Part shown: piece by piece, positions 14,225 through 37,379 of the stretch | Layout of the letters: each line of letters opens with the position of its first letter | Numbering within the stretch: position 1 is the first letter of the stretch | Origin: an uncultured virus (IMG/VR IMGVR_UViG_3300044645_001931) | Lineage: Duplodnaviria; Heunggongvirae; Uroviricota; Caudoviricetes | IMG/VR virus record: IMGVR_UViG_3300044645_001931 | DNA: 64,000 bases | Direction: 5' to 3' (one strand) | Notes under the pieces: generated by a model | Databases searched by the model: none | The model's input: only the letters and a program-made list of their open reading frames with translations | What the model was told of the DNA's origin: nothing | Program-made: the position numbers and the translations under genes

Positions 14225-14242
14225 GGTTGGTGTTGAGTTGAG

Positions 14243-16320: not shown

Positions 16321-16373
16321 GATTTTTTCGTAGTCAGGAGTAAGCAGTTTAACGTCATGCTCAGGACGAATCA

Positions 16374-17649: not shown

Positions 17650-17703
17650 GAGATCAGATGTGAAGTGTTAAAGCAGTTTAACGTCATGCTTAGGACGTTT
17701 TAC

Positions 17704-20563: not shown

Positions 20564-20642
20564 GGTGTTGAGTTGAATTGATTGATAAGCGGAGCTTATG
20601 AGTAGTTTAAGGACGTGCTCAGGTCCATCTTCCCGTTCGAAA

Positions 20643-22731: not shown

Positions 22732-23063
22732 TTGATGTTGGTGTAAGTTTTGTAGTTGACAATACGTGAGATTGTACTGCGAGCAGTGTCATAGCGGATT
22801 GCTATCTGACCATTGCTCAATCCTTTCTGATGTAGATGACGAATCATCAATACATCATTGTCAGTTAAGAAGGAGTTTCCATTCCTGGTACCAATAGGTT
22901 TGTAAGCTTTCAATGGAATTGGTTTAGCAACTTCGTACCGTTCAACAGTACGGTACTTGCAACCACAATCAAGACAACGACAATAACGTTTGGTTACATC
23001 AGATCCCAGATGTTCAGTACAAGTAACGCGTGTGTTACTACTGTTGCATTGTCTACAGTTCAT
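22728..23063 (-). CDS. NrdR/Ogr-like Zn ribbon fused to an HTH
   Basis: MNCRQC...RYCRCLDCGCKYRTVE plus GLSNGQIAIRYDTARSTISRI. Confidence 0.65.
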   Translation of the reverse strand: MNCRQCNSSNTRVTCTEHLGSDVTKRYCRCLDCGCKYRTVERYEVAKPIPLKAYKPIGTRNGNSFLTDNDVLMIRHLHQKGLSNGQIAIRYDTARSTISRIVNYKTYTNIK

Positions 23064-23355
23064 CTTCGGTAAGGTTCAATGAATGAAGTAGTTCAAGACA
23101 ATTGACTTCGCCCATGATCTTAAATGCATCTGCAATCAGTTCATGCGATAACGCAGGAAGTTCGTAGTAGTCGTACAAGATTTCTTCTGCACGATCAAAG
23201 TCATCATAAGAACCAGTCAGATGTTGGATCACGGAGCCAGGCATGTTATCAACCAAGGCTGTAACAATTGCTTGTCTCACTTGAGTCCAAGCATGCTCTG
23301 GTATCAATGCAACGGTCTTGTCGACAAGGTCGAGATCAATGGAGTCGTGTGTCAT
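23053..23355 (-). CDS. Hypothetical protein
   Basis: 100 aa acidic ORF. Confidence 0.6.
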   Translation of the reverse strand: MTHDSIDLDLVDKTVALIPEHAWTQVRQAIVTALVDNMPGSVIQHLTGSYDDFDRAEEILYDYYELPALSHELIADAFKIMGEVNCLELLHSLNLTEDEL

Positions 23356-23402
23356 AGAGAAAGACCCCCGCTTGCGCAGGGGCCGAACATTCCGCTAGTA
23401 CC

Positions 23403-23765
23403 TTAGGCAGGATTTGCGTCGGTGTCAATGAACTTGTCATAGAGACCAGCATCTTTAAGGCGCTCAAGCATCCCACACATCATGGTGGCATGGGCTTGCG
23501 TGGTCTCCATGAAGTGCCGTGCTCGTTCTGCTGAGATCACATGGACGTTGCCATTGGGTTCGACGTACTTCCATGAGCCATCGGGCTGTGGCTCACCCTG
23601 GAGCGCAAGCTTCTCAGAGTTACGGACGTACCGCATTTCAAGGTTGTGGTAGTCACGCAGACCTTCGTTGTCGGTCCAGGTAGCACCAATGTTGTAACGC
23701 TTGTCCTCATCTGCATAAGCATGGAACTCAGGGATGATGGACTTAAAAGCAGCAAAGAATTGCAT
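23403..23765 (-). CDS. Hypothetical early protein
   Basis: 120 aa ORF preceded by the hairpin motif and CAACTCAAC leader. Confidence 0.7.
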   Translation of the reverse strand: MQFFAAFKSIIPEFHAYADEDKRYNIGATWTDNEGLRDYHNLEMRYVRNSEKLALQGEPQPDGSWKYVEPNGNVHVISAERARHFMETTQAHATMMCGMLERLKDAGLYDKFIDTDANPA

Positions 23766-23834
23766 GATGTTGAGTTGGAGGTAAGTTGTTAGCCAGGGAC
23801 TTACACTTTAGAGATGCCCAGGTTAATCAAATTT

Positions 23835-24032
23835 TTAAGGCTTTTCAGTTTGAGCAGCAAGCTTAGATAATTTAGAGTCTATGTCATATAAATTAGAGTT
23901 AATCTCTTTCAGTTCAATTGTTATAGCGCTAAGTGAACTTGCAACATCATTTAATACTGCCAGTTCGCATGCAATCATTTTAGCGCTAGCACGAATGCAA
24001 TCACGCAAAAACATTCCTTGATCTTGATTCAT
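23835..24032 (-). CDS. Hypothetical coiled-coil protein; AT-rich
   Basis: 65 aa ORF directly after tRNA-Leu. Confidence 0.5.
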   Translation of the reverse strand: MNQDQGMFLRDCIRASAKMIACELAVLNDVASSLSAITIELKEINSNLYDIDSKLSKLAAQTEKP

Positions 24033-24059
24033 TTTAGTTAAGTAAAAAGTTTAATGGGT

Positions 24060-24135
24060 TGGTAGCCGACCTCGGATTTGAACCGAGACTTGACGGAGCT
24101 TAAATCCGTTGCCTCTGCCGTTGGGCTAGTCGGCC
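24060..24135 (-). tRNA. tRNA-Leu(UAA) with a short variable loop and encoded CCA
   Basis: GGCCGAC...ACGGA-TT TAA GC-TCCGT-CAAGT-CTCGG-TTCAAAT-CCGAG-GTCGGCT-A-CCA. Confidence 0.85.
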
Positions 24136-24335
24136 TCACTTGGACTTACGTCAATTGAATCTGACTGCCAAGTGTGGTCTTGAGGTAGGACTTCCATTCC
24201 GTAAGTCCAGCTATCGTAGTCATCCTCATTACGAGGATCTTCTTCAATCAGGATGTACTGTGGTGAGTTGTCTGTGATGTATTCACCAATGTTGGCCATG
24301 GCCATGGCAAGGAGCTGATCATCGGTGTAGTCCAT
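24126..24335 (-). CDS. Hypothetical acidic protein
   Basis: 69 aa ORF whose end overlaps the tRNA 5' end. Confidence 0.55.
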   Translation of the reverse strand: MDYTDDQLLAMAMANIGEYITDNSPQYILIEEDPRNEDDYDSWTYGMEVLPQDHTWQSDSIDVSPSEAD

Positions 24336-24384
24336 AGGTAAAGAGGCATCCCATTTACGAGGATAGGATGCCCCTGCTGTGGCT

Positions 24385-26100
24385 TCAGCTCTTAGAGCTT
24401 AGCTCATCATTCCGAGATTGCAAGGCCAGCTTGAATGCATTGGAATATCTCTCCTTTTGATCCTCGTCCAATCGCTGGTTGCCAACGCCAGCAATCTGTA
24501 TCACATTCATAACACCCATTGATACATCCAGTTGGATTGTAAAGGTTGGCTTACCATCAATCATGCAGAGCACAATAAAGTGCTTGCGTTTCTTGATGTT
24601 CTCTGCATACTGGGACGCAGAGCCAACACAGTTACGGACAGCTTGCCCCCATTGTGCTAGCTGATGGGTATCAATGGGTTGGAGGAATGTCCAGTCACTG
24701 TCACCCATGTTGACCTTGACAGGTGTAGGGAATAAATCCTGGTGCAGCGATTCTTTCTTGTTAGCTATCTTCCATGCTTCTGCTTGCACATAGTCATGGA
24801 AGTCAGGCATGCGCCAACGCTTAGGTGCTTCGATAGTCTTGTCGTTCTCAAAGATACGCATCATCATTGAGAACGTGTCATTCATCTCATACCATGCATG
24901 GATAATAAAGTCGTGATCAGATAGCGAAGAGATCCGGCGATGCTCTTCATTTGATTTCTCAACATGCTTGCGCATCATATTGAGGAATGATGTAACAGAC
25001 ATGTGCTCACGCAACCAAGTAAGCAAGGTATCGTTGGTACGTAGGTGATTGAGATTAACGACACGCAGTTCTTCAAAGTATGTACGGTAGTGATCAAGTG
25101 GGCAATCAGGCCACACATGATTAATGAAGTAGATAGAGTTTGTCGTTTGTTCAAACTCTTTGTAGCCATACTTGACTGCCTTACGCTGATTGTTCTCAGG
25201 GTTATTGTATTCAGCTACAGATTTGTCAAGCATAAGTTGAAGTTGCTTCTTGATAGAAGGTGCAGTAATAATGTGTTCAATATTCTGTATGGTTATGTAG
25301 GTTGTCGATACATAATTATTCTTAGCTGTCCATGCATTAGCAAGGCTGACCATACCATCAACCGTTAACTTAAACGCTGAACGATCTTCAATGCAGTTTG
25401 TTAATGCAGATGGAAACTCAAGTGCATCAAGAAGACTCTTGCATTTAATGCGCTCAAACATAGAACGACAATCGTCCCATGTTGGAATTGTTTCCATCAA
25501 GGTTTTCTCAAAGCTATTGATTGCGTCATTCATATCACGTGACTTCTGGTAGTAACTAGCTATACCCATGGCACGCCAGTTGCGTGCATCATTACCAGCG
25601 ATAACATCTTCTTTGGTTATAGTACGTGAATATGTAAAGGTTTGTGCGCCACGTCCAATGTTGTGTTCGGTGCACTGATCTTTAGTATTCCAGATGTGAC
25701 GAGGAACTACCTTAGCTGCAGCCGCAGTGTTCTTAAATGCATAGGCATAGCCATAAAGGTAGTCCTCTCCCTTGGCAGGTAACCATGCTGCGTACCAGCA
25801 TTGCTCGAAGTGATAGAGAACTGCAATGGTAATCGTACGTGCTTGTGGTGTAGCAATATCAACAACCTTGGTAAAGCGGTGATAACGCTCAGATACACCT
25901 GATGCATTGATGCGATCAATCGCATCTTGTTGATAGCCAGCACGTACCACATTCTCAGGGATAAGATGTGGAATATTACCCAGTGGATACTTAGCTTTCT
26001 TCGTAGTCTTCTTAGGTTCCTGCTCTTTGACCAAAGCCTTGAGCTTTGGATCGTAGGCAAGCAGTTCTTGTTGCAGGTTGGAGGGGAGTTGGAAGTACAT
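24385..26100 (-). CDS. PcfJ-like domain protein
   Basis: C-terminal FHD...LAQWGQAVRNCVGS...FTIQL...IQIAGVGN. Confidence 0.75.
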   Translation of the reverse strand: MYFQLPSNLQQELLAYDPKLKALVKEQEPKKTTKKAKYPLGNIPHLIPENVVRAGYQQDAIDRINASGVSERYHRFTKVVDIATPQARTITIAVLYHFEQCWYAAWLPAKGEDYLYGYAYAFKNTAAAAKVVPRHIWNTKDQCTEHNIGRGAQTFTYSRTITKEDVIAGNDARNWRAMGIASYYQKSRDMNDAINSFEKTLMETIPTWDDCRSMFERIKCKSLLDALEFPSALTNCIEDRSAFKLTVDGMVSLANAWTAKNNYVSTTYITIQNIEHIITAPSIKKQLQLMLDKSVAEYNNPENNQRKAVKYGYKEFEQTTNSIYFINHVWPDCPLDHYRTYFEELRVVNLNHLRTNDTLLTWLREHMSVTSFLNMMRKHVEKSNEEHRRISSLSDHDFIIHAWYEMNDTFSMMMRIFENDKTIEAPKRWRMPDFHDYVQAEAWKIANKKESLHQDLFPTPVKVNMGDSDWTFLQPIDTHQLAQWGQAVRNCVGSASQYAENIKKRKHFIVLCMIDGKPTFTIQLDVSMGVMNVIQIAGVGNQRLDEDQKERYSNAFKLALQSRNDELSSKS

Positions 26101-26158
26101 AATGAAGTTGGAGTTGAGTTGAGTATAGGTAGTTTAACGTCATGCCCAGGACGGTTGA

Positions 26159-26410
26159 TTAGCGGATCTCTTTTAACTGACGCAAGAGTTCTTCGTCAGT
26201 CTCATCACCTTCCCATGGACCAATGCGTTGGTCGCAGCAATAAGTACCGTACTTCACGTCATCATCGTTAATGATATTGTGAAGACTGACACTGCGTCCA
26301 TTAGCAAAGACTGGCATGCGTTTAGCAAAGCCAGTTGCCAAATACACTCGACCCTTGGGACCACGCAGTACAAAGTACCAGCGTTTGAATTCAATTGAGA
26401 AGCCAATCAT
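26159..26410 (-). CDS. Hypothetical protein
   Basis: Coupled ORF. Confidence 0.55.
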   Translation of the reverse strand: MIGFSIEFKRWYFVLRGPKGRVYLATGFAKRMPVFANGRSVSLHNIINDDDVKYGTYCCDQRIGPWEGDETDEELLRQLKEIR

Positions 26411-26658
26411 TCGTAATCACTCAGATCGAGTAGTTGCCAGAGAGGATCGAGTTGATCAAGATAGCTGCAGAAGCCATCTTCGTCAAGAGGAATCGGTTCC
26501 TCTGGATCCAACTCAATAGTTGTTGTGCACAATGCAGGAGCCCACTCTTCAGGGTCGAAGCGAGTCGCCCGATAGAGCAGGCGCATGTCGTCAACAACTG
26601 CTGTAACTGTGACATGAGTTTGTGTGAAGTAAGTATCTTCGATTGCAAGGACTGTCAT
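26407..26658 (-). CDS. Hypothetical protein
   Basis: VTAVVDDMRL..RAT.FDPEEWAPALC. Confidence 0.6.
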   Translation of the reverse strand: MTVLAIEDTYFTQTHVTVTAVVDDMRLLYRATRFDPEEWAPALCTTTIELDPEEPIPLDEDGFCSYLDQLDPLWQLLDLSDYE

Positions 26659-26843
26659 CAGTTGTCCTCCACGTAGGAATGGTGGGTGGTTTTGATGAGG
26701 CGGTACTTCATCCACAGACGTGCTGTGTCGTACTCGCCATTGAATCGTGTTTCATCTAAAACATTTGCACTTGCTCTGCGCTTTGCGCAGTCAGCAAGAT
26801 TGATGCGATCAAACATGTTGAGATAGTCGACGTAAGCAGACAT
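26658..26843 (-). CDS. Hypothetical protein
   Basis: Start MSAYVDY follows the leader motif. Confidence 0.55.
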   Translation of the reverse strand: MSAYVDYLNMFDRINLADCAKRRASANVLDETRFNGEYDTARLWMKYRLIKTTHHSYVEDN

Positions 26844-26903
26844 GAGTTGAGTTGAATTGGTGGACAAGACCTGGGACTTACACCGTAAGGATGCCCAGGA
26901 TCT

Positions 26904-27101
26904 TTAGATTAACTTAATGTTTGGGATGCTCAAGCCTGTGCCAGGGATACTGACTGATCCTTTGACGCCATTGGGACTGGCGTTGACAGTCAGTTGGAAT
27001 GGTCCAAGCTTGATCTGTTTACTTACTGACTTGATACCATGTTCAGTGATGTTCACACCATGAATGGTGCGATCAAAACTAATGGGAGATTTCTTGGTCA
27101 C
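26904..27101 (-). CDS. DUF4236-like small protein
   Basis: GVKGSVSIPGTGLS motif. Confidence 0.55.
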   Translation of the reverse strand: MTKKSPISFDRTIHGVNITEHGIKSVSKQIKLGPFQLTVNASPNGVKGSVSIPGTGLSIPNIKLI

Positions 27102-27441
27102 TTGATAATTTTCCGTGGATTTTTAAATGACATTCTTTGCATAGAGGTTCTACCCATAGTGGGTAGTCATAGTTGGGGTGATGGTATTCTTCTGCATGTT
27201 TATCACAATCTGTGCATAAAAATACAGAAGGACGAGGCCAAGTGCCTCGTCTGATCCTAGCTCCAATCCTGTCGCTTGCTCTATATCTTTTAGAGGCTTC
27301 AGGATCTTTACGTTTGTGATCAGGATTAGCACTCTTCCACAATCGTTTCTGCTCTCTTAATCTTTCACGATTTTCGATCGCATATTTACGATTGTATTCT
27401 TTGTGATAAGCTTTACGCTTATCAAGATCTTTGTGTGGCAT
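27079..27441 (-). CDS. HNH-like endonuclease; AT-rich
   Basis: CTDC...EYHHPNYDYPL.VEPLCKECHLKIH. Confidence 0.7.
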   Translation of the reverse strand: MPHKDLDKRKAYHKEYNRKYAIENRERLREQKRLWKSANPDHKRKDPEASKRYRASDRIGARIRRGTWPRPSVFLCTDCDKHAEEYHHPNYDYPLWVEPLCKECHLKIHGKLSSDQEISH

Positions 27442-27650
27442 TACTTCAAATCTTCAGGAGTCAATAGTTCAGCATCTTCAGGAGAAAGATTAGTCATAAT
27501 GAATTTTTCACCTGAGGGGGATATAAAGCCCCCGATGAAACCAATACCATGTTTCTCAGCTGATTCTTTCATCTTGGCTACAAGCTGCATAGCTTGAAGA
27601 CGTTGGATGTCAATTGAATCAGGAATGCGAGGAGTGTTTGAGTTTGTCAT
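27441..27650 (-). CDS. Hypothetical protein
   Basis: 69 aa ORF with the leader motif. Confidence 0.6.
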   Translation of the reverse strand: MTNSNTPRIPDSIDIQRLQAMQLVAKMKESAEKHGIGFIGGFISPSGEKFIMTNLSPEDAELLTPEDLK

Positions 27651-27823
27651 GTGAGTTGAATTGATGTGTGGTCTAGAAGACTGTGTAAGTCTACCAGGGT
27701 ATGCAAGTACTGAAGCATGTATTAAGAGATGTAATGCATAGGAAGTACTTATGTATATAGAAGGGTCCCCCCTGGTTCTCCTTGGGGGAGTGTGAGGGGG
27801 GAATACATGTGTACTACCTGATG

Positions 27824-28111
27824 TTATCGATGCATTTCCTGGTGTTCTTTCCAGGCAGCTGCATGCATTTCTGCTGCAGTGATGGGTGGTTCACCAGGTT
27901 CGTTAGGTGTTGGATCGTAGTCGATCTCATCTTCTAGCATGCCGATTACCTCATCGATAACGTCACGCATGTGTGGATCGAGATGCTCGTCCATCTGATG
28001 ACGCTTATCTTCGCGAGCACAGATAGCTTTGAGTGCATCAACTACTAGTTGCAGTTGATGATACTCATTCTTGGTCCAGTCAATTGCTGGATACTTCTTA
28101 GCTTGTTCCAT
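27824..28111 (-). CDS. Hypothetical early protein
   Basis: 95 aa ORF preceded by the pseudoknot and leader. Confidence 0.65.
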   Translation of the reverse strand: MEQAKKYPAIDWTKNEYHQLQLVVDALKAICAREDKRHQMDEHLDPHMRDVIDEVIGMLEDEIDYDPTPNEPGEPPITAAEMHAAAWKEHQEMHR

Positions 28112-28167
28112 GGTTGAGTTGATGGTGAGTAGGATGGACTGAGCAGTTTAAGGACATACTTAGGTCC

Positions 28168-28395
28168 ATGTTATTAGCTGGTAGATATGCAATGAATAAC
28201 AGTTCTTTCCTTCAAGGGTGGCAACAAGAATACATGAAGGCTCATGGTTCTATGCCACCACAAGATAAAGTAATGGACTTCTTAACATCTGTTGTACGGA
28301 ATGAAAGCATTCCGATGCAAAACAAACAAGCAGAGCTTAGGTTGTTAGATCAGATGCAAAGGTTTACACCTGATGTACGTAATGTAGTCGGATAA
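28168..28395 (+). CDS. Hypothetical protein, antisense to the early arm
   Basis: 75 aa ORF MLLAGRY... Confidence 0.5.
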   Translation: MLLAGRYAMNNSSFLQGWQQEYMKAHGSMPPQDKVMDFLTSVVRNESIPMQNKQAELRLLDQMQRFTPDVRNVVG

Positions 28396-28516
28396 AAACC
28401 TGGGACTTATGCATCGTACTTACGTAGGTGCTGCCCAGGATTGAGGCTATGACTGAAGTATTGGCATGTATTCGCTATTTGCGAATAGCGAACAATACTA
28501 CGGCACTGTTATAACG

Positions 28517-28759
28517 TCATGCGCTCTTAGGTGAAAGCATGATCCATGCAGTGTAGTTAGCACTGCTTCTGTCTACACGTATCAATCCGTATTCTTCCAG
28601 TCGCACCAAGGCCTGGAGATATTGCTCAAGCCTTGAGTTTTGCGATGGAAGCTTAGGTACGAAGCATGGTGTATTCCCATACTTCTTCCTGTGATTGAGG
28701 TAGTACGCATAGAGATTGCGTTGGTTGATACTGAGTGCAGGTGTTACAGTTGCTTGCAT
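28517..28759 (-). CDS. Putative winged-helix protein
   Basis: LSINQRNLYAY...YLQALVRLEEYGLIRVDR. Confidence 0.55.
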   Translation of the reverse strand: MQATVTPALSINQRNLYAYYLNHRKKYGNTPCFVPKLPSQNSRLEQYLQALVRLEEYGLIRVDRSSANYTAWIMLSPKSA

Positions 28760-28762
28760 TGA

Positions 28763-29131
28763 TCAGCAGTAGTACGGACGGGATTCAGGATAAGCCTTAG
28801 CTAGTTCGTTGGAGAAACTGATGTCGATGTTGGATCGAGTTGTCGTATCTCCAAGAGAACGTTGGTCTTCGATCTCGTACTTCTCGAAGTACTTGACGTA
28901 GACCTGGACCGCTTGCTTCTTGGAGAAGATGCAGTGGCTGACAAGCGGGTCTCCTTGGGTGTAGTACCAACCTCCTTCTTCGGGTCCGCCGTACCTGAGG
29001 TAGGTTTCGTGGACCGTGACGACCGTTGGGTCTTTGTGCTCGAAGTACTTGTGCACGTTGTAGGCATTGATTGCGAAGCGTGCTTTGTAGGACTTGGGGT
29101 AGAACTTCTTGAGTTCTGAGATGTAAGACAT
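28763..29131 (-). CDS. Hypothetical phage protein
   Basis: YGGPEEGGWYY...YPESRPYYC motif. Confidence 0.7.
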   Translation of the reverse strand: MSYISELKKFYPKSYKARFAINAYNVHKYFEHKDPTVVTVHETYLRYGGPEEGGWYYTQGDPLVSHCIFSKKQAVQVYVKYFEKYEIEDQRSLGDTTTRSNIDISFSNELAKAYPESRPYYC

Positions 29132-29218
29132 GATGCAAACTCCGTGATGATGATTGAAATGATTGCAATCAGGATGACGATGATGTCACCGTCATCCCAT
29201 GCTTGACGCAGTGTGTAC

Positions 29219-29365
29219 TTAGGCTTGGTCATCGTAGGTCTCCAGTTCAGGTGGGTTGAGTTCGTATTCTTCACGCATGGCTTGCTCCTGCTGGTATGCA
29301 AGATCAGCCATTGCGTCAAGATAGTCAGCGTTGCGCTGCTCGTCAATGAAGTTAGGGTCTCTCAT
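29219..29365 (-). CDS. Small acidic protein (48 aa)
   Basis: MRDPNFIDEQRNADYLDAMADLAY...; follows the pseudoknot variant and leader. Confidence 0.55.
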   Translation of the reverse strand: MRDPNFIDEQRNADYLDAMADLAYQQEQAMREEYELNPPELETYDDQA

Positions 29366-29418
29366 GGTTTGAGTTGAGATTGTGTCTGCGTTTATAGGAT
29401 GCGCAGCCCCCTGGTATT

Positions 29419-30069
29419 ATGAATACAACACACGTGTTGTATATGCCAATACCAATGCAGTTAGTCGGTAAAGGATTTGTGCCGCCTGGTTATGGGTCCA
29501 GGGATTTCAAGGATGAAATTAATCCTGGCATAAATCTCAGGCAAACAAATCCTTTGGGATGGCAAGAGATAAATAAAGATAACATTGGTGCTGCGTTCCA
29601 AGGATTATTAAATACTGTGACAGCTAATCCTGCACAGTACACTCCCGGATATGATCCAATGCTTGATCAAGGTGGTCATCATCCTGGCGCCAAGCAATTG
29701 ATTGGTGCTTTCACAGGACAAGGCATTAACTTGACAGATGACACCGGAAGTGTGCAGTTAACTCCTGGTGGATTAAACATACAGTCAAACAAAGGTTGGT
29801 CTGCTGGATTTAATCCGACAGGTGGGAATATAAATGTTGGACCTGTAGGAATACAAGGTACATGGGCAGGAGATAAAAGCATTCAAGCCACAGTAAATCT
29901 TGGTAGACCCAAAGAATTTTCAGGTGGCTTTATGACTCCTCCCATGATGCAAGAGTTCTTGAATCCTGTTCAAGAACCAGTAGTGCAAACAGGTCCTTCA
30001 GCAGGTAGGCAGTTAATGCTGGAGCAAACAGATGAGTACTTACGTCGTAACCCATATGGTTACCGTTGA
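29419..30069 (+). CDS. Hypothetical Gly-rich protein, antisense to the early arm
   Basis: 216 aa ORF ending RRNPYGYR. Confidence 0.65.
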   Translation: MNTTHVLYMPIPMQLVGKGFVPPGYGSRDFKDEINPGINLRQTNPLGWQEINKDNIGAAFQGLLNTVTANPAQYTPGYDPMLDQGGHHPGAKQLIGAFTGQGINLTDDTGSVQLTPGGLNIQSNKGWSAGFNPTGGNINVGPVGIQGTWAGDKSIQATVNLGRPKEFSGGFMTPPMMQEFLNPVQEPVVQTGPSAGRQLMLEQTDEYLRRNPYGYR

Positions 30070-30317
30070 ATAAAGTACTGAGGCAATTGAATACGTGCAC
30101 AGTAATAGACATGTGATGTACTGGTGCATGCGTAGTCTTGGTTAGATCCATCCCAGATGAAACGTTGTCCATCTGAGAATGTAATATAGCCAGTACCAAG
30201 GTACTGTTGAATGCACACTGTCGTGGTGCATATGAAGTTGAGCATGGGTTGAGCTGAGTAAATGGACAGTAAACCCTGGGACTTACACACCGTGCTTACG
30301 TCGGTGCTGCCCAGGGA

Positions 30318-30542
30318 TCAGAAGGTATTAGCCACCTTTGTTGCTAAGGAATCAACAAAGGTTGAACCATCTTCTTGGAATGCGAGCATGTATTGTTCAC
30401 GCTCGTCTTCATCCATCAGTGCACCCAAGGTGTGGTGTGCATGATAGAAGGCTAGTGCGTTGACGATTGCATACTTCTCATCAACGGTGATGATGAGGTG
30501 ATACCGCTTGTTGTCTTCAGTCTGATCCATGAGTGCGCCCAT
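30318..30542 (-). CDS. Hypothetical protein
   Basis: Leader motif upstream. Confidence 0.6.
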   Translation of the reverse strand: MGALMDQTEDNKRYHLIITVDEKYAIVNALAFYHAHHTLGALMDEDEREQYMLAFQEDGSTFVDSLATKVANTF

Positions 30543-30627
30543 GTTGAGTTGAGGTAGGTGAATAGTTGAGCATGGGACTTACACCACTCTTGCGAATGGT
30601 TCTCAATAGTGGATGCCCATGTGTTGG

Positions 30628-30984
30628 TCACTTCATGTAGAGGTATGAGCCAGCGCAATCAGCATCTTGGATGCAGGTGGCAAACGATACCTCGTCCATG
30701 AGGTTATAACGTACGTGCTTAGCTGGTGCCTTCCAGCTTGCTGGTTTAAAGACACAGCCAGTCTGGCGATGTATGAATGCATGTACGCAGGCACCAGTGT
30801 TGCCATTCAACGTTGAGCGTTTGACGTCACGTTGGATGAGCTTGTAGTACTTGACGCCTTTGACCATGTCAAATGCAATGCCGCCATCTCCGTACTGCTT
30901 AGCGTACTGTGCAAGCAGCTTGTCGATCAGGCATTGGATGCGTGCCTCAAGTACTTCGGTGTGTTCTTTGAGTTGTGTGGTCAT
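30628..30984 (-). CDS. Conserved phage protein
   Basis: VHAFI...TG.VFKPASWKAPAKHVRYNL motif, recalled from T4-like cyanophages. Confidence 0.7.
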   Translation of the reverse strand: MTTQLKEHTEVLEARIQCLIDKLLAQYAKQYGDGGIAFDMVKGVKYYKLIQRDVKRSTLNGNTGACVHAFIHRQTGCVFKPASWKAPAKHVRYNLMDEVSFATCIQDADCAGSYLYMK

Positions 30985-31198
30985 GTCAGCGAGTGATTGT
31001 AGGTTGTGCTTTGGTGGACTGTGGATTGATGTTGGTAAAATCCACACCCACTAGTGCCATGCCACTGATGGTGGCAAGGAGGAGTGCGAGGAGGGCAATA
31101 GCAATTGATCCAAGACGATTCTCAGGATAAGACTCATAAGAATCAAGGATCACATACTTGCCTTTGCCCATTGAGTAGATGGTCTTCATGGTGTTAGA

Positions 31199-31471
31199 TC
31201 AGATGGTTGCAAGGATGTAGCGACAAGCAATATAGTCTTGGTCAGGAAGTGAAACGTAGGTACCTTGTTCGTGTGAGCCATAGGTATCTATCCACTGACC
31301 ATCGATCAGTACATCGAGACATTCAAGGTATGCGTCGATGTACTCACGTGCTTGTTCCGTTGTTGCTACCCACTGGAGATAGCAAACATCCTTCTTGCAT
31401 TCGATGTAATAGTGATCGATCTTGAACAAGCTGATTGCATTGTCAATCTCGTCTCTGCCGATAGTGAGCAT
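31199..31471 (-). CDS. Hypothetical protein
   Basis: 90 aa ORF. Confidence 0.55.
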   Translation of the reverse strand: MLTIGRDEIDNAISLFKIDHYYIECKKDVCYLQWVATTEQAREYIDAYLECLDVLIDGQWIDTYGSHEQGTYVSLPDQDYIACRYILATI

Positions 31472-31546
31472 CGTGTGGTGTGCGATGGATTGGTGTCCAG
31501 GATATAGAGTCCTGGTGGGAAGGGCCGAAGCCCCTCCGATCAGGAG

Positions 31547-31786
31547 TCAGTCCTCATGCCTGCGTTCCCAACGAAGCAGATCCCTGTTGAGATCTACCTT
31601 GTGTTGGAGTAGCACGCAGAATGGGACTAGGTCTTGGAACTGGGCTAACCCATCTTGCCATTGGAAGAAGAGTTGTAGTGCAGCTTGACGCTGTTCTTCA
31701 ATCTCTTGGTCAATGGCAGGGGAGTCTCTGCGAGCCAATAGACGTGCGTCTTGGGTCAGCAGTTGTTCAACAGCTTTAGGAGTCAT
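31547..31786 (-). CDS. Hypothetical protein
   Basis: MTPKAVEQLL... Confidence 0.55.
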   Translation of the reverse strand: MTPKAVEQLLTQDARLLARRDSPAIDQEIEEQRQAALQLFFQWQDGLAQFQDLVPFCVLLQHKVDLNRDLLRWERRHED

Positions 31787-31886
31787 GGTCTCCAGTTGGT
31801 GTCGTGTGGTGTAATGCAGGGAGAACCCTGCAGAAAACCCACCGTCGATACGAATTCGTATCAAGACGGAAGGTTAAGTGCAGGGT

Positions 31887-32102
31887 TCAGTTCATGTACT
31901 TACTGTTGATGCAGAAGTACGTGTCACCAAGGAAAGACTTGGTGTAGATCAGGTTATGTCCTGGTTGGTTGTGGCACGTGGCCTTGTAGTGTCTGTTGAG
32001 AACTTTCTGTGCTCCAACAGATAGGAGTAAGCCAAGACCAGTCCCACAAAGGATAGCAACACAGGCGTCTGAGAAGTAGTTACGTTGGTAGTTGCGTTGC
32101 AT
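31887..32102 (-). CDS. Small membrane-anchored protein
   Basis: Hydrophobic helix and a Cys pair. Confidence 0.55.
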   Translation of the reverse strand: MQRNYQRNYFSDACVAILCGTGLGLLLSVGAQKVLNRHYKATCHNQPGHNLIYTKSFLGDTYFCINSKYMN

Positions 32103-32105
32103 GAA

Positions 32106-32294
32106 TCAGTTACCTTGCTTAGGTTGGATAATGAATGCCATGTCGTTCGGCATGATGAGTGCCGCCGCCCGAGTACGATACTCGTTCAGCTTCTCCGTCA
32201 TGCCTGCCTTAGTAGGTACCTTGACATTCTCAACTGCTGCCGCAGTATTGACAAGGATTGACGCAAGGTTCTTGCGGATGTTCAGTGCAGTCAT
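32106..32294 (-). CDS. Hypothetical protein
   Basis: 62 aa ORF. Confidence 0.55.
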   Translation of the reverse strand: MTALNIRKNLASILVNTAAAVENVKVPTKAGMTEKLNEYRTRAAALIMPNDMAFIIQPKQGN

Positions 32295-32362
32295 TGTGTC
32301 GTGTGGTATAGGAGCAGGAATTGAATCCTGCAGTAAAGGGCCGAAGCCCCTTAGAGCAGGAA

Positions 32363-32611
32363 TCAGAAGATAGTCCCAGCCATTGTGTCGAGATGGAGTT
32401 GGCTGATGTGCTGATAGTAATCAGACATAGCAGCTAGTAACTCCTTGGTACCGCAAGGGATACCTCCACCAAGTGTCTGGGAGTAACGCTCGATCCAGTC
32501 AGGATCTCCCTTGTAGTCATCTACCTGCACTTGGTAGTGAAGCATGGTTGATTCTCCTCCATGCCAGGTGATGCGCTCGGTTGCACCTTCGTAGGGGTAG
32601 TAGCACAGCAT
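32363..32611 (-). CDS. Hypothetical protein
   Basis: Start MLCYYPY after the leader motif. Confidence 0.55.
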   Translation of the reverse strand: MLCYYPYEGATERITWHGGESTMLHYQVQVDDYKGDPDWIERYSQTLGGGIPCGTKELLAAMSDYYQHISQLHLDTMAGTIF

Positions 32612-32692
32612 AGTGTTGAGTTGAGTAAATGCCACTGAGTTGTGGCAATACTGAACCAGGGAATTGCACCCTGGAACGCCGCTTAGACGGAC

Positions 32693-32872
32693 TCAGATGT
32701 CGTAACCGTTGGTGATGCACCAGTTACGGTGGAGTGTGTCATGCTCCTTAGGCCAGTCATGGTTAATGCATTGGTGAGCAGTTGCCTTATCTGTGAAGTA
32801 GATAACGGCTTGCCCACCAATACCCATGATGGAAGCAGCGATGATCACGTAGGTTGCAATGCGTTGAGTCAT
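32693..32872 (-). CDS. Small membrane-anchored protein (59 aa)
   Basis: MTQRIATYVIIAASIMGIGG...QCINHDWP...WCITNGYDI. Confidence 0.55.
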   Translation of the reverse strand: MTQRIATYVIIAASIMGIGGQAVIYFTDKATAHQCINHDWPKEHDTLHRNWCITNGYDI

Positions 32873-32986
32873 GGTGTTGTGTAATGTGTAAACGTTGCTA
32901 CGTTTAACGTCCAGCTCGACGAAAGATCCTGGTAACTGTTCTGTAAGACCAACAGGCGGCTGTAGCCTAAATGGGGTCGCGCACGA

Positions 32987-33023
32987 GGTATAAATACCTA
33001 GTCGTGGGTATAAATACCTAGTG
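32987..33023. repeat. Tandem direct repeat GGTATAAATACCTAGT (x2)
   Basis: Two exact 16-nt copies 21 nt apart, each a small inverted repeat (GGTAT..ATACC). Confidence 0.8.
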
Positions 33024-33114
33024 AATTGACAAGGATTGTACGGTAATTAGGTGGGGATTAAGTTGATTGAGGGCTGTAGTAAACCCTGGCTCTCACCAGG
33101 GTAAAGTACAAACG

Positions 33115-33381
33115 TCAAAGGCAACTGCCTTCGATAACTAATCCGTGATCTTCGGGACGGCGTGTGATCCACACCTTCCACATCACGTCGTTATCCATGT
33201 AAACTTCGCACTCATACAGTTCCTCTAACAGGAACTTAATCACTTGGCTAGCTGTCCAGCCACTGGCTCGCAGCACGCCAGACTTCATGACAACCTTCTT
33301 GCCTGCTCGCAGCGCAAACGCTGCATCGACAAGTCGGCTAGTCATCTCATCTGTGCTAATCGTCGTCATTACTGTCGTCAT
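33115..33381 (-). CDS. First gene of the early arm, hypothetical
   Basis: 88 aa ORF preceded by the pseudoknot variant. Confidence 0.55.
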   Translation of the reverse strand: MTTVMTTISTDEMTSRLVDAAFALRAGKKVVMKSGVLRASGWTASQVIKFLLEELYECEVYMDNDVMWKVWITRRPEDHGLVIEGSCL

Positions 33382-33618
33382 GGTACCGAATCGTGTGGTT
33401 TGCCTGCGTTTCTACGGATGCGCAGCCCCCGATACTTATTCAACCCACCCCACCTTTCTTTTTTTCTATACGCAATTCATCACGCGTGGGGTGTTGGAGA
33501 AGCGTCAGTAAATTTTTTCTCCTTTTTTGGTCCCTATAGGGCCGGCCTTATGTATCAATACGTACATAACACCTAAAATGTGTAGCGGTATCAAGGGTTT
33601 TGCCCAAAAATACAAACA

Positions 33619-33646
33619 AAAATGCCGGGGTTTTAGTGCCCCGGCA
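33619..33646 (-). terminator. Rho-independent terminator
   Basis: tgccgggg/ccccggca hairpin with a T run on the minus strand, after ORF 33680. Confidence 0.65.
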
Positions 33647-33679
33647 GTGTAGTTAAATAATCTTAGGTGTTTTTACTTA

Positions 33680-33880
33680 TCAGCCTTTAGCTTTTTTGGC
33701 GGCAACCGCCGCTTCAAAATAAGATTCGGGATCAGGGCGTTGATTTACTAGCTCTTTGCGTGCGCCAGAGACAAATCCCTGTACATCAAGGGAGTCTGCA
33801 CCGCTTTCCGCCAATTTTTTGGCTTCGTTTTCAATTGCTTCAAGTGCAATAATGCGCTCGGCCCTGTTCTTGGGGTTCAT
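33680..33880 (-). CDS. Hypothetical protein
   Basis: 66 aa ORF with its own terminator. Confidence 0.6.
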   Translation of the reverse strand: MNPKNRAERIIALEAIENEAKKLAESGADSLDVQGFVSGARKELVNQRPDPESYFEAAVAAKKAKG

Positions 33881-33992
33881 CTTGGTACTTACGACCCAAT
33901 TCCTTTTGTCTTCATACTACTTTACTGCAATCTTTCGCATTTCATGGCCTAAAATACAAATAACAAGCAAACAATAGGTAATAGTTAGTCCC

Positions 33993-36900
33993 ATGGCCCT
34001 GTCTCCCGCCGACTTTGCCGCATACAGCCGTGCCACTGGGACCCCATACCCCGAAGATCCGGAAGAAAGGGCAGAGTTAGCGCCAGATGTCCTTGAATTC
34101 CGCCGTAATCAGCTTCGTGCGCCACAAGAGGAGTCAAATCTACCCGGCATCTTGGGCGCTGTAGCTGCAGGCTTAGGTGTTTTGGGCGCTGGTACGTATG
34201 GAGCTATGCAATTAGCTGGCCGTCGTTCTCCTCAAACAAAACAAACAGGGTTAGGTGTTAAGCAAGCTGATCTTTCTACTGTTGCTACCACTCCTCCACT
34301 GCGTGCAACTCCTTCCCCTTCAAAAGTTGCCATTACTCAACCGGAAGCTGCTGTTAAATCTTCAACGGTCGATCTTTCTAAATATACTGAAGTTCCTTTT
34401 TCCGATGTAACGGCTGCTTCTCGCGCACAACCAAGGACAGAAGAGTTTGATGTTCCACCTGCCGAAATAAACGCACAATCTTTTGCCAAAGCAGCAGTCG
34501 ATGATCTAGTTAATATTCAACAAAAAACTACATCTGCGATTGCAGAAAATGCACTTGACTCCCTGGAGAGCGGCTCGGATCAACTTGACTCCAAACTTGA
34601 ATCCGTAGTCCAACGTGACGTAGATTCCGTTCGCTATAGCAAGCCCATTGTCGCCGTTGAGAAATACACAGGAGCCGTAGAGGAACTAACGCCCCGTCAA
34701 GAACGCCTTATGGCGCAGATGGGTGCACTTGGTGCTCCAAGAGCTGACTTAAATCCTGACCAAAGTCCCGTGCTTCCAGCGAAAGCCATGGATCGCTTTA
34801 TGGCTCTGGATTTATCTGGTGGTGTACCAGAGCATCAACAAGCTGCTCTTGGTAATTTCTTGCGTCAACAAGAAGCTCGTAATACTCCTCTTTCAGGTTT
34901 TAATTTGTCTGGTGCACGTGGAGATCTTCCTGGTGTTTCTGCAATGTCTCCGCAAGAACGCAGGACATTCGGCAAACAAATTGGATTAGATCTTCGTCCA
35001 TCCAAGGCTCAAGAATCCGCTGGTTTCTTTGGTGCAGATGTTGACATGAGTGATTTTGAAGGCCCTGTTCAAGGGCCTGCCATGAAACCCTACGTATCAC
35101 CTCAACGTACTGAGCCCGTAACCATAACCAGCCTTGATCGCGCAGATCGGATTTCAGCAGCAGCTAACTTTACACCTGGTTCCTACGAACATCAACTACT
35201 GTTAAACCCAACAGTACCAACCGAAAAGATTCGCGGTTTACTTGGCAGTACCTTACGTGTTGATGCTGGACGTGTTGGCACCAACTTAACGCATGAAATT
35301 ACCCCTGGCGCCAGGGCAAGCATGACTGAGGTACCTGGATGGAAAGATGAACAGGCTGCTCGTCGTGCGCAGATGGGTCAAGAGGTTGTTTATGACGAAT
35401 ACGCAGGAGATACACCATACGTTCAAACAGTGTCTTGGGATGACTATGAAGGTGCTACAGATTTAGGTGAGGGTGAAGGCCCTGGTGGCTTGACGCTTAG
35501 CCGTACGTTTGATGAGCGCACTGGTAAGAGCCGCACCGATCTCCCTGGACAGTACCAACTTGCAGTTGGTGGTTCCCAGTCTCCGAGAGGCATTCGTCCA
35601 CTTAACCGCAGTAACGAAGAGCTTTACACGCGTCAAGAACGTATTGATCGTGTAATGCCCACACGTAGCACGGAAGAAGGCGATACTTCCCGTGGCTTTA
35701 GGATTGACGCGAATACAGGTCGGTTAGTTTTTGAAGGCGCTTCAGAACGTGATCCGATGGGTCGCTTGCGTCCTACCGATCCAACCATAATGATTGAAGG
35801 TGACTACGAAGATAAATTGGTCACCAAATTAGTTGGTGGTTACCAAGGTGTAACGGGTGAGCCAAGCAAAATGGTATCTATGCAGCCTACATCTGCTTAT
35901 TACGAAAAAGATGTAGTTGGAAAGGCTGACCCACGCATTGAAACAGGTTCAGACGGTAGGCTTTATGTACGTAGCAGTCAATCAACAATTACAGGCGAAG
36001 AGCCTTTGGTTGCTTTAGTTGGTAAACGCACGGCCAACCCTGATGGCACAAAAGGACCTTACGTATTCCTTGAAAAACAAGGCTTGCGTCAAGTTCAATT
36101 ACCCTTAAATATGCTTACCGAAATCATACAAGACGCAAAAGACTCTTATCTTAATAATCCTTCAACTAAAAAAGAATTCCTTGGGCGCCGCTATCCAGAG
36201 TTATTAGAGCAGGGAATGGCAGAAGGAAAATTATTGAGTGATATGGGTAGTGCCATTTCATACAATGATTTTCTTATTGAGTCATTAGATAAAGGCTTGC
36301 AAGCACGTGGCTATAAACTACCAGTTCTTCAACCAGCTAAAAAAGGTTACTACCCCAAAGCTGCTCATGAGTTTATTAGTCAGTATGGCCAAGTGACCAA
36401 AGAAAGCCCTGTTTTTGGCTATCCGGCCATGCTTGGGCCAAATGGAGGTATCCTTTATGAGAATACAAAGTATGGCAAGGTACCTAAAGTTGATAAGAGC
36501 AGTGAACCACGTCCCATACCTGGTCTTTTAGACGTACGTGGTACTGGCGGTGTAGACGCAATGTCTATTGCTGATGACTATGAAGGTGCTGTTGCTTTCC
36601 ACTCGCCGCGTATTCAAAGCGCTCCTCAAGTAGTACGGGATCGCCGCACTAATGAAGTTCTTACTGCCACACAATCCGCTCAAAGCGCCCAAGGTTTACT
36701 TTCCACTGGGGAAACCGTACCTCAATTATTACCTCTTTCGCGCCCTCAATTCACTAATTATCCAAATGTTGCTATGCGTACCGTTAGATTACCAGGCGGT
36801 GAAGGCACTTATGTAGCTACGGAATTCCTTCCTCCTACCTTATATGAAATTAAAGTTGATCCTGAAACCGGTAGGCGCTATCCAACAACTAACATTATTA

Positions 36901-37379
36901 GCCAAGAGCGTACTGTTGAGCGTGCTCCTCAAGTACCAAATCAATCAACGGCCGCTAGCCTTGGTACAACAGGCCAAAAATTTGTTGACTTGCGTCGTTC
37001 GATGGAAACAGCACGCACTGGTTATACGGCACCTTATATCAGCAATATTGGCGGCGGATTTATTGCAAACACAAAAAGACCTTTTAGCAGTAACGCTTTT
37101 TATGCAGATGGTCCTGTCGGAGGTACGTTACCTCTTGGGGGCTACGTTCAAACAGGCGAACCATATCTCACCCGTTTTGGTTACTTGAATCCAAACGAAC
37201 GTGGTGTGGGTGCTTCCCGTAATTTAAACCTGGAGATGGGTCCCCGAGCTGCGTCCGTAAGACCCACTCCTGGACCAGAGTCTTCCGGAGCTGGGAACAT
37301 CTCAACTTATGATATTAATCAAGTAATGAAACAAGCAATGGCACAGGCGGGACGCCGCCGTGGTTCACGGAAAGGTTGA
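33993..37379 (+). CDS. Large hypothetical protein (1128 aa), possibly internal virion/ejection protein
   Basis: First gene of the virion arm; N-terminal hydrophobic GA-rich helix; largely low-complexity. Confidence 0.75.
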   Translation: MALSPADFAAYSRATGTPYPEDPEERAELAPDVLEFRRNQLRAPQEESNLPGILGAVAAGLGVLGAGTYGAMQLAGRRSPQTKQTGLGVKQADLSTVATTPPLRATPSPSKVAITQPEAAVKSSTVDLSKYTEVPFSDVTAASRAQPRTEEFDVPPAEINAQSFAKAAVDDLVNIQQKTTSAIAENALDSLESGSDQLDSKLESVVQRDVDSVRYSKPIVAVEKYTGAVEELTPRQERLMAQMGALGAPRADLNPDQSPVLPAKAMDRFMALDLSGGVPEHQQAALGNFLRQQEARNTPLSGFNLSGARGDLPGVSAMSPQERRTFGKQIGLDLRPSKAQESAGFFGADVDMSDFEGPVQGPAMKPYVSPQRTEPVTITSLDRADRISAAANFTPGSYEHQLLLNPTVPTEKIRGLLGSTLRVDAGRVGTNLTHEITPGARASMTEVPGWKDEQAARRAQMGQEVVYDEYAGDTPYVQTVSWDDYEGATDLGEGEGPGGLTLSRTFDERTGKSRTDLPGQYQLAVGGSQSPRGIRPLNRSNEELYTRQERIDRVMPTRSTEEGDTSRGFRIDANTGRLVFEGASERDPMGRLRPTDPTIMIEGDYEDKLVTKLVGGYQGVTGEPSKMVSMQPTSAYYEKDVVGKADPRIETGSDGRLYVRSSQSTITGEEPLVALVGKRTANPDGTKGPYVFLEKQGLRQVQLPLNMLTEIIQDAKDSYLNNPSTKKEFLGRRYPELLEQGMAEGKLLSDMGSAISYNDFLIESLDKGLQARGYKLPVLQPAKKGYYPKAAHEFISQYGQVTKESPVFGYPAMLGPNGGILYENTKYGKVPKVDKSSEPRPIPGLLDVRGTGGVDAMSIADDYEGAVAFHSPRIQSAPQVVRDRRTNEVLTATQSAQSAQGLLSTGETVPQLLPLSRPQFTNYPNVAMRTVRLPGGEGTYVATEFLPPTLYEIKVDPETGRRYPTTNIISQERTVERAPQVPNQSTAASLGTTGQKFVDLRRSMETARTGYTAPYISNIGGGFIANTKRPFSSNAFYADGPVGGTLPLGGYVQTGEPYLTRFGYLNPNERGVGASRNLNLEMGPRAASVRPTPGPESSGAGNISTYDINQVMKQAMAQAGRRRGSRKG

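Follow-up and report, generated by a model that had tools for sequence, protein, structure and literature searches.

A recurrent hairpin with a conserved asymmetric loop is probably an uncatalogued RNA element marking gene boundaries on phage messenger RNAs

The early operons of phages are full of unannotated intergenic signals, few of which are understood outside T7, lambda and T4. In a 64 kb stretch of DNA from an uncultured freshwater cyanophage of the Caudoviricetes (IMG/VR record IMGVR_UViG_3300044645_001931; hereafter the window), five hairpins sharing an asymmetric internal loop are transcribed within a leftward, minus-strand operon of small early-type open reading frames (ORFs). The ORFs are mechanical calls, and the label "early genes" for the small ones is taken from their position. 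We have found, by sequence comparison, that these hairpins belong to a conserved structured RNA family which is found mainly in phages. Probably it is an RNA element, so far uncatalogued, by which gene boundaries are marked on phage messenger RNAs. The function that we favor, although we hold it only tentatively, is in the processing or stability of mRNA between cistrons, with the loop as a specific recognition site. With its compact invariant core, its clear covariation, the lack of an Rfam entry and flanks that range from 19% to 68% G+C, the hairpin is a well-defined candidate for a new RNA family.

The hairpins were first proposed in a reading of the window that was made from its letters, with no database searches (the sequence-only reading), and all five were recovered on the minus strand where they had been placed, at 23793-23822, 26870-26899, 28399-28439, 30274-30316 and 30571-30621 (copies 1 to 5). 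The word TAAGTCCC occurs five times in the window, always at these sites, against 1.28 occurrences expected (2 of 100 shuffles reach five), and the composite GGGCA-N5-45-TAAGTCCC also occurs five times, against a mean of 0.064 over 500 dinucleotide-preserving shuffles, none of which reaches five. The asymmetric core had been called invariant. Its 5' side, GGGCA, is indeed identical in all five copies, but the 3' side reads GUAAGUCCC in four of them and AUAAGUCCC in copy 3. The outer stem (P1) covaries as proposed, being CCUGGG/CCCAGG in three copies and CAUGGG/CCCAUG in copy 5, which is a compensatory change; in copy 1 it is CCUGGG/CCCUGG, with a U-U mismatch. The apical arm (P2) was likewise found to vary in length, from 1-2 pairs in copy 1 to about 14 bp in copy 5.

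Copies 2 to 5 fold into two helices, with z scores between -1.86 and -3.07. In copy 5 (-17.8 kcal/mol, z -2.08) the loop is CA opposite GUAAGU, while copy 4 (-21.9 kcal/mol, z -2.75) has a P1 of CCCUGGG/CCCAGGG and carries a GUAAG inside the apical loop of P2. Copy 3 (z -1.86) has the 3' loop variant AUAAGU and is followed by UUUUUAUCC. Copy 2 (-15.8 kcal/mol, z -3.07) is a minimal form, with a P1 of 6-10 bp and a P2 of 3 bp closed by a UUAC loop, and copy 1 is weak or degenerate. The five copies were among the seed of a covariance model, and their scores of 37-48 bits are therefore to some extent built in (39.8 bits for copy 5, 40.8 for copy 4, 37.4 for copy 3, 47.9 for copy 2 and 40.7 for copy 1, itself a seed member). 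When the whole window was searched with this model and with filters off, no further strong copy was found. A marginal match on the minus strand at 24135-24176 (16.5 bits, E 0.013), which abuts the 5' end of a tRNA-Leu(UAA) gene at 24060-24135, may be a decayed copy.

Across the family, P1 comprises 5-10 bp and ends on its inner side in N-G-G/C-C-N'. The asymmetric loop sets a 5' C-N, in which N is mostly A and sometimes C or G, opposite a 3' R-UAAG-Y. P2 may be as short as 3 bp capped by a tetraloop or as long as about 15 bp; the pair that closes it is often non-standard (U.U, G.U or A-U), it often ends in a GNRA or UUCG tetraloop, and GCAA, GUAA and UUCG are its commonest short loops. The search used an exact core pattern, GGGCA-N5-35-GTGTAAGTCCC, and a stem filter that required two or more pairs in P2 and two or more in P1 beyond those of the core. 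Our figures for IMG/VR and for genome contigs cover the matches listed, and among these both stems were present in 96 of 141 exact core matches on viral contigs and in 4 of 117 core matches on bacterial and archaeal genome contigs, the latter being about the chance level.

In an alignment of 59 hairpins the covariation score was 0.332, compared with 0.091 for shuffled alignments (0 of 500 reach the observed value) and with at most 0.100 when the partners were slid by 1-3 columns, although it counts against our reading that the stem filter by which the sequences were chosen itself selects 4 of the 10 pairs entering the score. For this reason a test was added in which the filter does not bear on the pair examined: the outermost pair of the GGG/CCC triple was changed, and the filter was applied to the other pairs only. 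Among the matches listed, the compensatory forms A..T and T..A passed in 31 of 123 and 20 of 123 cases, whereas the mismatched controls A..A and T..T passed in 1 of 115 and 2 of 121. The same compensation was seen in model matches free of any typed pattern, in which the loop is again limited to C-N and R-UAAG-Y. The compensatory changes include G.U pairs, RNA-type tetraloops are frequent, and the orientation of the hairpin is always that of the flanking ORFs, which points to a function as RNA. Judged from these comparisons, selection acts on the loop sequence and the changes in both stems are compensatory, and this is the appearance that would be expected of a specific recognition or processing site. 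The sequence-only reading had proposed a site of protein binding or processing; a conserved element acting at the RNA level, with a selected loop, has been borne out, and protein binding or cleavage may be its role.

The family reaches well beyond the window. Model matches were found in 20 of the 24 IMG/VR records searched, and relatives of the window of 55-85 kb carry 2-7 copies each, on one strand and within 4-8 kb. The sequence-only reading had staked its case on conservation in related phages, and this was found to be strong and to extend well past them, as hairpins that pass the filter occur in at least 164 loci with at least 116 distinct sequences, with the flanking G+C running from 19% to 68%. 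The DNA runs that contain the window stretch come mostly from lake-water metagenomes. Among cultured phages, only Synechococcus phage S-EIVl is similar, at 74.5% identity over 264 nt. A BLAST search of cultured phages with a 42-nt hairpin query returned only chance matches of 17-18 nt, but the model search found two copies in S-EIVl, which lie in unannotated spacers between small hypothetical genes (KJ410740, 41435-41479 and 40725-40788). Since this phage is in culture, the role of the hairpin is a question that can be tested at the bench.

None of the catalogued elements that were considered accounts for the hairpin. A search of the whole window against Rfam 15 at the gathering threshold gave only 2 tRNA matches and no hairpin family, and in E-value mode the region 23000-34000 gave, besides tRNA, 3 matches with E values of 0.66-3. 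In twenty related loci, Rfam matches were confined to tRNAs, chance-level matches and one sub-threshold group I intron. Known RNA modules (K-turn, loop E, T-loop, tetraloop receptor, S8 site and anticodon-loop mimic) were set aside because the variation in the loop does not fit them, judged by consensus only. A literature text search for the core as GTAAGTCCC and GUAAGUCC returned no phage or RNA-motif title among the matches listed. Fremin et al. (2023; PMC10690425), as represented by an excerpt and supplementary files, predicted 10,006 viral structured RNAs; the core is absent from 6 of the supplementary files, and an earlier listing in 3 others is possible.

The position of the hairpin is as regular as its structure. 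Four window copies had been said to begin 1-12 nt past a stop codon and to end about 27-29 nt before the next ATG, and the measured gaps are 6, 1, 4 and 12 nt past the stop and 28, 28, 26 and 27 nt before the ATG for copies 5, 4, 2 and 1, respectively (copy 5 follows the ORF at 30628-30984, and the four ATGs lie at 30542, 30245, 26843 and 23765). Copy 3 lies 77 nt past the stop at 28517, with a convergent plus-strand ORF at 28168-28395 beyond it. In the wider family, an upstream ORF of at least 45 codons stops within 45 nt of 85 of 97 distinct filter-passing hairpins, at a median gap of 4 nt, and an ATG-started ORF lies downstream of 78 of the 97 at a median of 29 nt, with modes near 22-30 and 35-51 nt. 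The downstream ORF starts (82 distinct) are of many kinds. The hairpin of the copy-4 type keeps the same upstream gene and has three different followers, in the window, in the IMG/VR loci L091 and L229, and in L165. In one group the hairpin stands between a structural gene and the gene for the major head protein (PHROG 1005, E 2e-16), and in two IMG/VR loci (L253, L156) the full hairpin lies about 8 nt ahead of a tRNA gene, so that it is not tied to the translation of the gene that follows. Plain GC hairpins, often with UUUACU after them, occupy the same slot between other genes of the operon.

From the structure, conservation, position and strand observed, we infer that the hairpin acts as RNA, through the capping or processing of 3' ends and with a partner. 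The reading of the hairpin as punctuation between cistrons is drawn from its link to the upstream stop, from the tRNA-adjacent cases, from the slot it shares with plain hairpins and from its portability. The hairpin would form as soon as the adjacent stop codon is cleared by the terminating ribosome and would cap the 3' end of the upstream cistron, where it might block 3' exonucleases or set the limit of an endonucleolytic cut. It would also keep the upstream cistron apart from the leader of the next gene, an unstructured and AC-rich stretch where ribosomes may load. That the loop is invariant implies either a specific partner or a specific fold, and the loop could be a recognition or folding module for a conserved putative partner.

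In function, the closest system would be the RNase III sites between the early genes of T7. The T7 signals R0.3 to R1.3 are intercistronic hairpins of the early genes, present in several copies, with an asymmetric internal loop and no U tail, and the cut made by RNase III leaves the hairpin at the 3' side of the upstream message. The hairpins described here are also recurrent and intercistronic, have an asymmetric internal loop, mostly lack a U tail and come at several per genome, and they too would remain at the 3' side of the upstream message. They differ in sequence, and many of them fall well under two helical turns; their loop is conserved across phages of unrelated hosts, while recognition by RNase III needs no such loop. 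Should the hairpin prove to signal processing or stability, the transcript architecture of uncultured phage genomes would become easier to read, and operon design would gain a portable part.

Several observations weigh against a processing or stability element. RNase III is usually said to require roughly two helical turns of duplex, and the short members of the family, with P1 and a 3-bp P2, do not reach this length: the duplex comes to about 20 bp in copy 5 and to 9-13 bp in copy 2, and many relatives have a 3-bp P2. Copy 1 scarcely folds at all, no better than shuffled sequences (-5.4 kcal/mol, z +0.70). An RNA-library contig (26802-26953) runs straight through copy 2; the RNA data comprise two libraries with 5-6% of the sampled words, as low-depth contigs that show no ends. 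A simple stabilizer would need no invariant loop, so that the loop is explained only by way of the putative partner. Finally, in a group of AT-rich loci (L379-L384), which are fragments of large AT-rich phages judged by CheckV to be 3-8% complete, the hairpin seems to travel with its downstream gene while the upstream genes differ between contigs, and 9-13 nt of the apical loop of P2 are complementary to the region just upstream of the ATG. That region lies 35-45 nt downstream, and both sides of the complementarity change between members. Pairing of the P2 loop with the ribosome-binding site (RBS) region in this group points to a role in the translation of the downstream gene. This gene, which matches PHROG 15526, also has a weak match to a PHROG of homing endonucleases (E 6.8e-5) and sub-threshold Pfam matches to GIY-YIG (17-19 bits against a cut-off of 27), and it is by these similarities a probable homing endonuclease, possibly of the GIY-YIG type.

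The AT-rich group is one ground for regarding the hairpin as a translational operator or ligand switch, in which a phage or host repressor, or a small molecule, bound by the loop would control downstream initiation. The size of the invariant core, about that of a small aptamer, is in keeping with such a role, and an excerpt of PMC2988022 describes structures that sequester the RBS at homing endonuclease genes of T4. The apical loop of the AT-rich group resembles these in pairing with the RBS region; the T4 structures, as the excerpt presents them, are simple local hairpins that have no conserved core, and the window copies are unpaired with the start regions. As the window leaders and start codons are left free of the hairpin, as the downstream genes are very diverse (unrelated small ORFs, the PHROG 1005 major head protein, tRNAs) and as five to seven copies per operon would be unusual for an operator, we regard this explanation as quite unlikely. 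A riboswitch or operator attached to one class of gene was rejected, as the downstream ORFs are diverse and pairing with the start region is limited to the AT-rich group.

Transcription termination bears on the same slot. In this explanation the hairpin would be a terminator or attenuator at which the polymerase is partly stopped or paused, the loop being a possible target of an antitermination factor. The GC-rich base of P1 suits such a role, and so do the UUUA or UUUU found past P1 in many relatives. As to the window copies, the sequence-only reading had granted a U tail to copy 3 at most. Copy 3 has one, a UUUUU between convergent ORFs, and may function as a terminator; copy 4 is followed by UUUACU, a string also found behind other intergenic hairpins of the operon, and copies 1, 2 and 5 have no U run. 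That three of the five lack one speaks against plain terminators in general, and this extends to the family, in which the 10 nt past P1 hold a mean of 3.6 T over 97 hairpins and at least 6 T in 15 of them. A canonical intrinsic terminator was therefore rejected at the level of the family, the U tract being mostly missing. A terminator scan flagged none of the five copies, though a hairpin of two helices is beyond what its loop limit of 3-8 nt can describe. Since an RNA-library contig crosses copy 2 and an invariant internal loop is not needed for termination, we consider that termination or attenuation is an unlikely general function. A sigma-70 promoter within or after the hairpin was also rejected, because the spacing of the candidate hexamers shifts with the length of P2 and no scan match is adjacent; the promoter scan of the window gave 14 promoter-like sites (the shuffle mean being 18.1), none adjoining a hairpin.

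Small ribozymes of other kinds occur intergenically in phage DNA, and the position of the hairpin resembles theirs. A self-cleaving or otherwise autonomous RNA that processes polycistronic mRNA with no help from host factors would explain the presence of a small invariant core across very different hosts, as suggested by flanks of 19% to 68% G+C. Nevertheless, we view it as highly improbable, given that no Rfam ribozyme family was matched, that no more than two helices and about 10 conserved bases make up the minimal form, and that an uncut copy is present in the RNA-library contig.

The loop has a counterpart in the ribosome. Helix 37 (h37) of 16S rRNA, at about 1074-1089 of the RF00177 consensus, is a 4-bp hairpin with a 6-nt loop that conserves GG/CC and the loop but not the outer pairs, and the phage motif shows the same pattern of GG/CC closing pairs, a UAAGU loop and covarying outer pairs. 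The corresponding 12-mer, GGG-UUAAGU-CCC, was found inside the 16S gene at three of the four loci checked with Rfam, which come from 4 of the 5 genomes that hold the 12-mer. According to an excerpt of PMC10931766, ribosomal protein uS2 contacts the h35-h37 region and is required for the binding of bS1, and a uS2-bS1 complex forms off the ribosome. The hairpin might on these grounds be a mimic of h37, with an arm inserted in the loop, that binds uS2 with or without bS1 upstream of leaders that have no Shine-Dalgarno sequence, and as a consequence phage translation would be favored or uS2 titrated. Consistent with this, the hairpins of the cyanophage group stand 19-32 nt before ATGs, behind AC-rich leaders devoid of a Shine-Dalgarno sequence. 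However, the topology differs, as the 16S form is a plain hairpin closed by a hexaloop, while in the phage hairpin the 5' U of the loop is replaced by C-N and a helix. Furthermore, some copies stand ahead of tRNA genes or of genes with a GGAG site, the 9-11 nt in common could reflect a recurrent RNA fold, and a class of group II introns also carries GGG-UGUAAGU-CCC. We consider a mimic of this kind unlikely, and it is doubtful, to a similar degree, that a functional copy of h37 is displayed on phage mRNAs so as to capture uS2/bS1 or 30S subunits lacking them, or to titrate uS2. If it were so, a hairpin that imitates the uS2-contacting part of 16S rRNA would be a new viral route for engaging the host ribosome. 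In a broader view, the ribosome, one class of group II introns and phage messengers would all draw on a single recurrent RNA module, GG-[..]UAAGU-CC.

On the bacterial and archaeal genome contigs, where stems occur at the chance level among the matches listed, one look-alike is recurrent. Loci such as L285, L294, L311, L322, L338 and L357 hold GGGCA..GGG-TGTAAGT-CCC, a plain hairpin in which GG/CC pairs close a UAAGU loop, within a region starting GTGYG that resembles what we take to be the 5' region of a bacterial group II intron.

The hairpins also coincide with places where gene content changes. An insertion of about 900 bp follows copy 4 relative to L091 and another follows copy 3 relative to L061; one variant among the DNA runs joins 27952 to 28395, at the 3' edge of copy 3, and loose contig ends occur at both edges of copy 4 (30268 and 30315). 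A short, portable hairpin of this kind also marks points of gene-cassette exchange, and boundaries of indels and gene swaps are the setting in which PeSL cassettes of T4-like phages are found. As described in an excerpt of PMC4122927, a PeSL combines a terminator with an early promoter, and PeSLs are short conserved intergenic hairpins that flank variable early genes at indels and gene swaps. By this analogy PeSL cassettes would be the closest known system in evolutionary behavior. The phage hairpins differ from them in having no sigma-70-type promoter nearby, the gap of 26-28 nt to the ATG being too small for one, and PeSLs are not defined by an invariant internal loop.

The coincidence of cassette boundaries with hairpins, at the insertions after copies 3 and 4, at the joint 27952>28395 and at the loose ends of copy 4, could be explained by a repeat that acts as DNA, either a recombination adaptor or a selfish palindrome of the PeSL or REP kind, with no function as RNA. 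REP elements can stabilize upstream mRNA, as the phage hairpins may do, and they resemble the latter in being small imperfect palindromes just past stop codons. Unlike the phage motif, which is at the chance level in genome contigs, REP elements are chromosomal and have hundreds of copies, and a chromosomal repeat of the REP type was rejected with stems in only 4 of 117 core matches on the genome contigs listed. A DNA-level repeat in general is very improbable, as the orientation always follows the flanking genes, the stems contain compensatory G.U pairs, RNA-type tetraloops are frequent, the motif is rare in bacterial chromosomes, and the variable length of P2 would be intolerable to a protein binding duplex DNA.

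Immediately downstream of copies 4 and 3 there are ORFs on the opposite strand, at 29419-30069 (plus strand, 216 aa) and 28168-28395 (plus strand, 75 aa). Both lie inside segments that are missing from relatives and look like inserted cassettes; no family match was obtained for either in the PHROG and Pfam searches (the 216-aa ORF being outside one of them). A pseudoknot that the sequence-only reading had described, GGGGCTGCGCATCC followed by ..AACGCAG, occurs twice on the minus strand: at 33416-33429, before the first early ORF, and at 29397-29410, before the gene at 29365. It had been suggested that hairpin and pseudoknot share one slot and are interchangeable. One direct example supports this, as the gene at 29365 is preceded by the GGGGCUGCGCAUCC element in the window and by the hairpin in its homologues in L091, L146, L229 and S-EIVl; the exchange in the window is nonetheless explained by the inserted cassette and not by substitution.

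A further change in gene content was seen in an RNA-library contig, in which 67 different letters stand in place of an endonuclease gene at 27079-27441 (minus strand, PHROG 2340), with a joint 27105>27516. The change is consistent with a mobile endonuclease gene, and several HNH genes are present in the window. In the IMG/VR locus L163, a group I intron (RF00028, minus strand 398-44, 45.4 bits against a threshold of 50) begins past codon 3 of the major head gene. A link between the hairpin and group I introns was rejected, since the intron is absent from the five sister loci scanned and in L163 interrupts the head gene downstream.

The arm that carries the hairpins runs leftwards on the minus strand from about 33,900, with many small ORFs that are followed by genes for thymidylate synthase, DNA polymerase, single-stranded DNA-binding protein (SSB) and nucleases, and the plus-strand arm carries terminase, portal, head and lysis genes. 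An ORF of 1128 aa at 33993-37379 gave no PHROG match (E <= 1e-5), no Pfam match (E <= 0.01) and no usable Atlas match.

Two short motifs recur in the leaders of this arm. The leader motif CAACUCAAC lies between copy 5 and its start codon (30543-30551, minus strand) and recurs at 28113-28121, 26846-26854 and 23769-23777, and CAACTCAAC, one copy of which covers the same site, is present in 8 exact copies against 0.87 expected, all on the minus strand (14232-14240, 20567-20575, 23769-23777, 26113-26121, 26846-26854, 28113-28121, 30543-30551 and 32615-32623). Each copy ends 0-13 nt ahead of an ATG, and the motif seems to be an AC-rich, G-poor leader standing in for the Shine-Dalgarno sequence. The second motif, GACGTTAAAC, has 4 exact copies, again all on the minus strand (16347-16356, 17676-17685, 26132-26141 and 32902-32911). 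At 26132 and 17676 it is part of a common GCATGACGTTAAACT, located 30-45 nt before the ATGs of a 571-aa PcfJ-like gene and of the SSB gene, and it may be a promoter-like signal. An orphan 5' half of the hairpin, CCUGGGCA at 26143-26149 (minus strand), has no 3' partner and runs straight into the GACGTTAAAC motif. The other minus-strand spacers of the early arm, between 31500 and 33140, contain the plain hairpins GGGGCUUCGGCCC, CCCUGG..CCAGGG and CUGCAGGG..CCCUGCA, several of them followed by UUUACU, and a classical terminator is present at 33623-33646.

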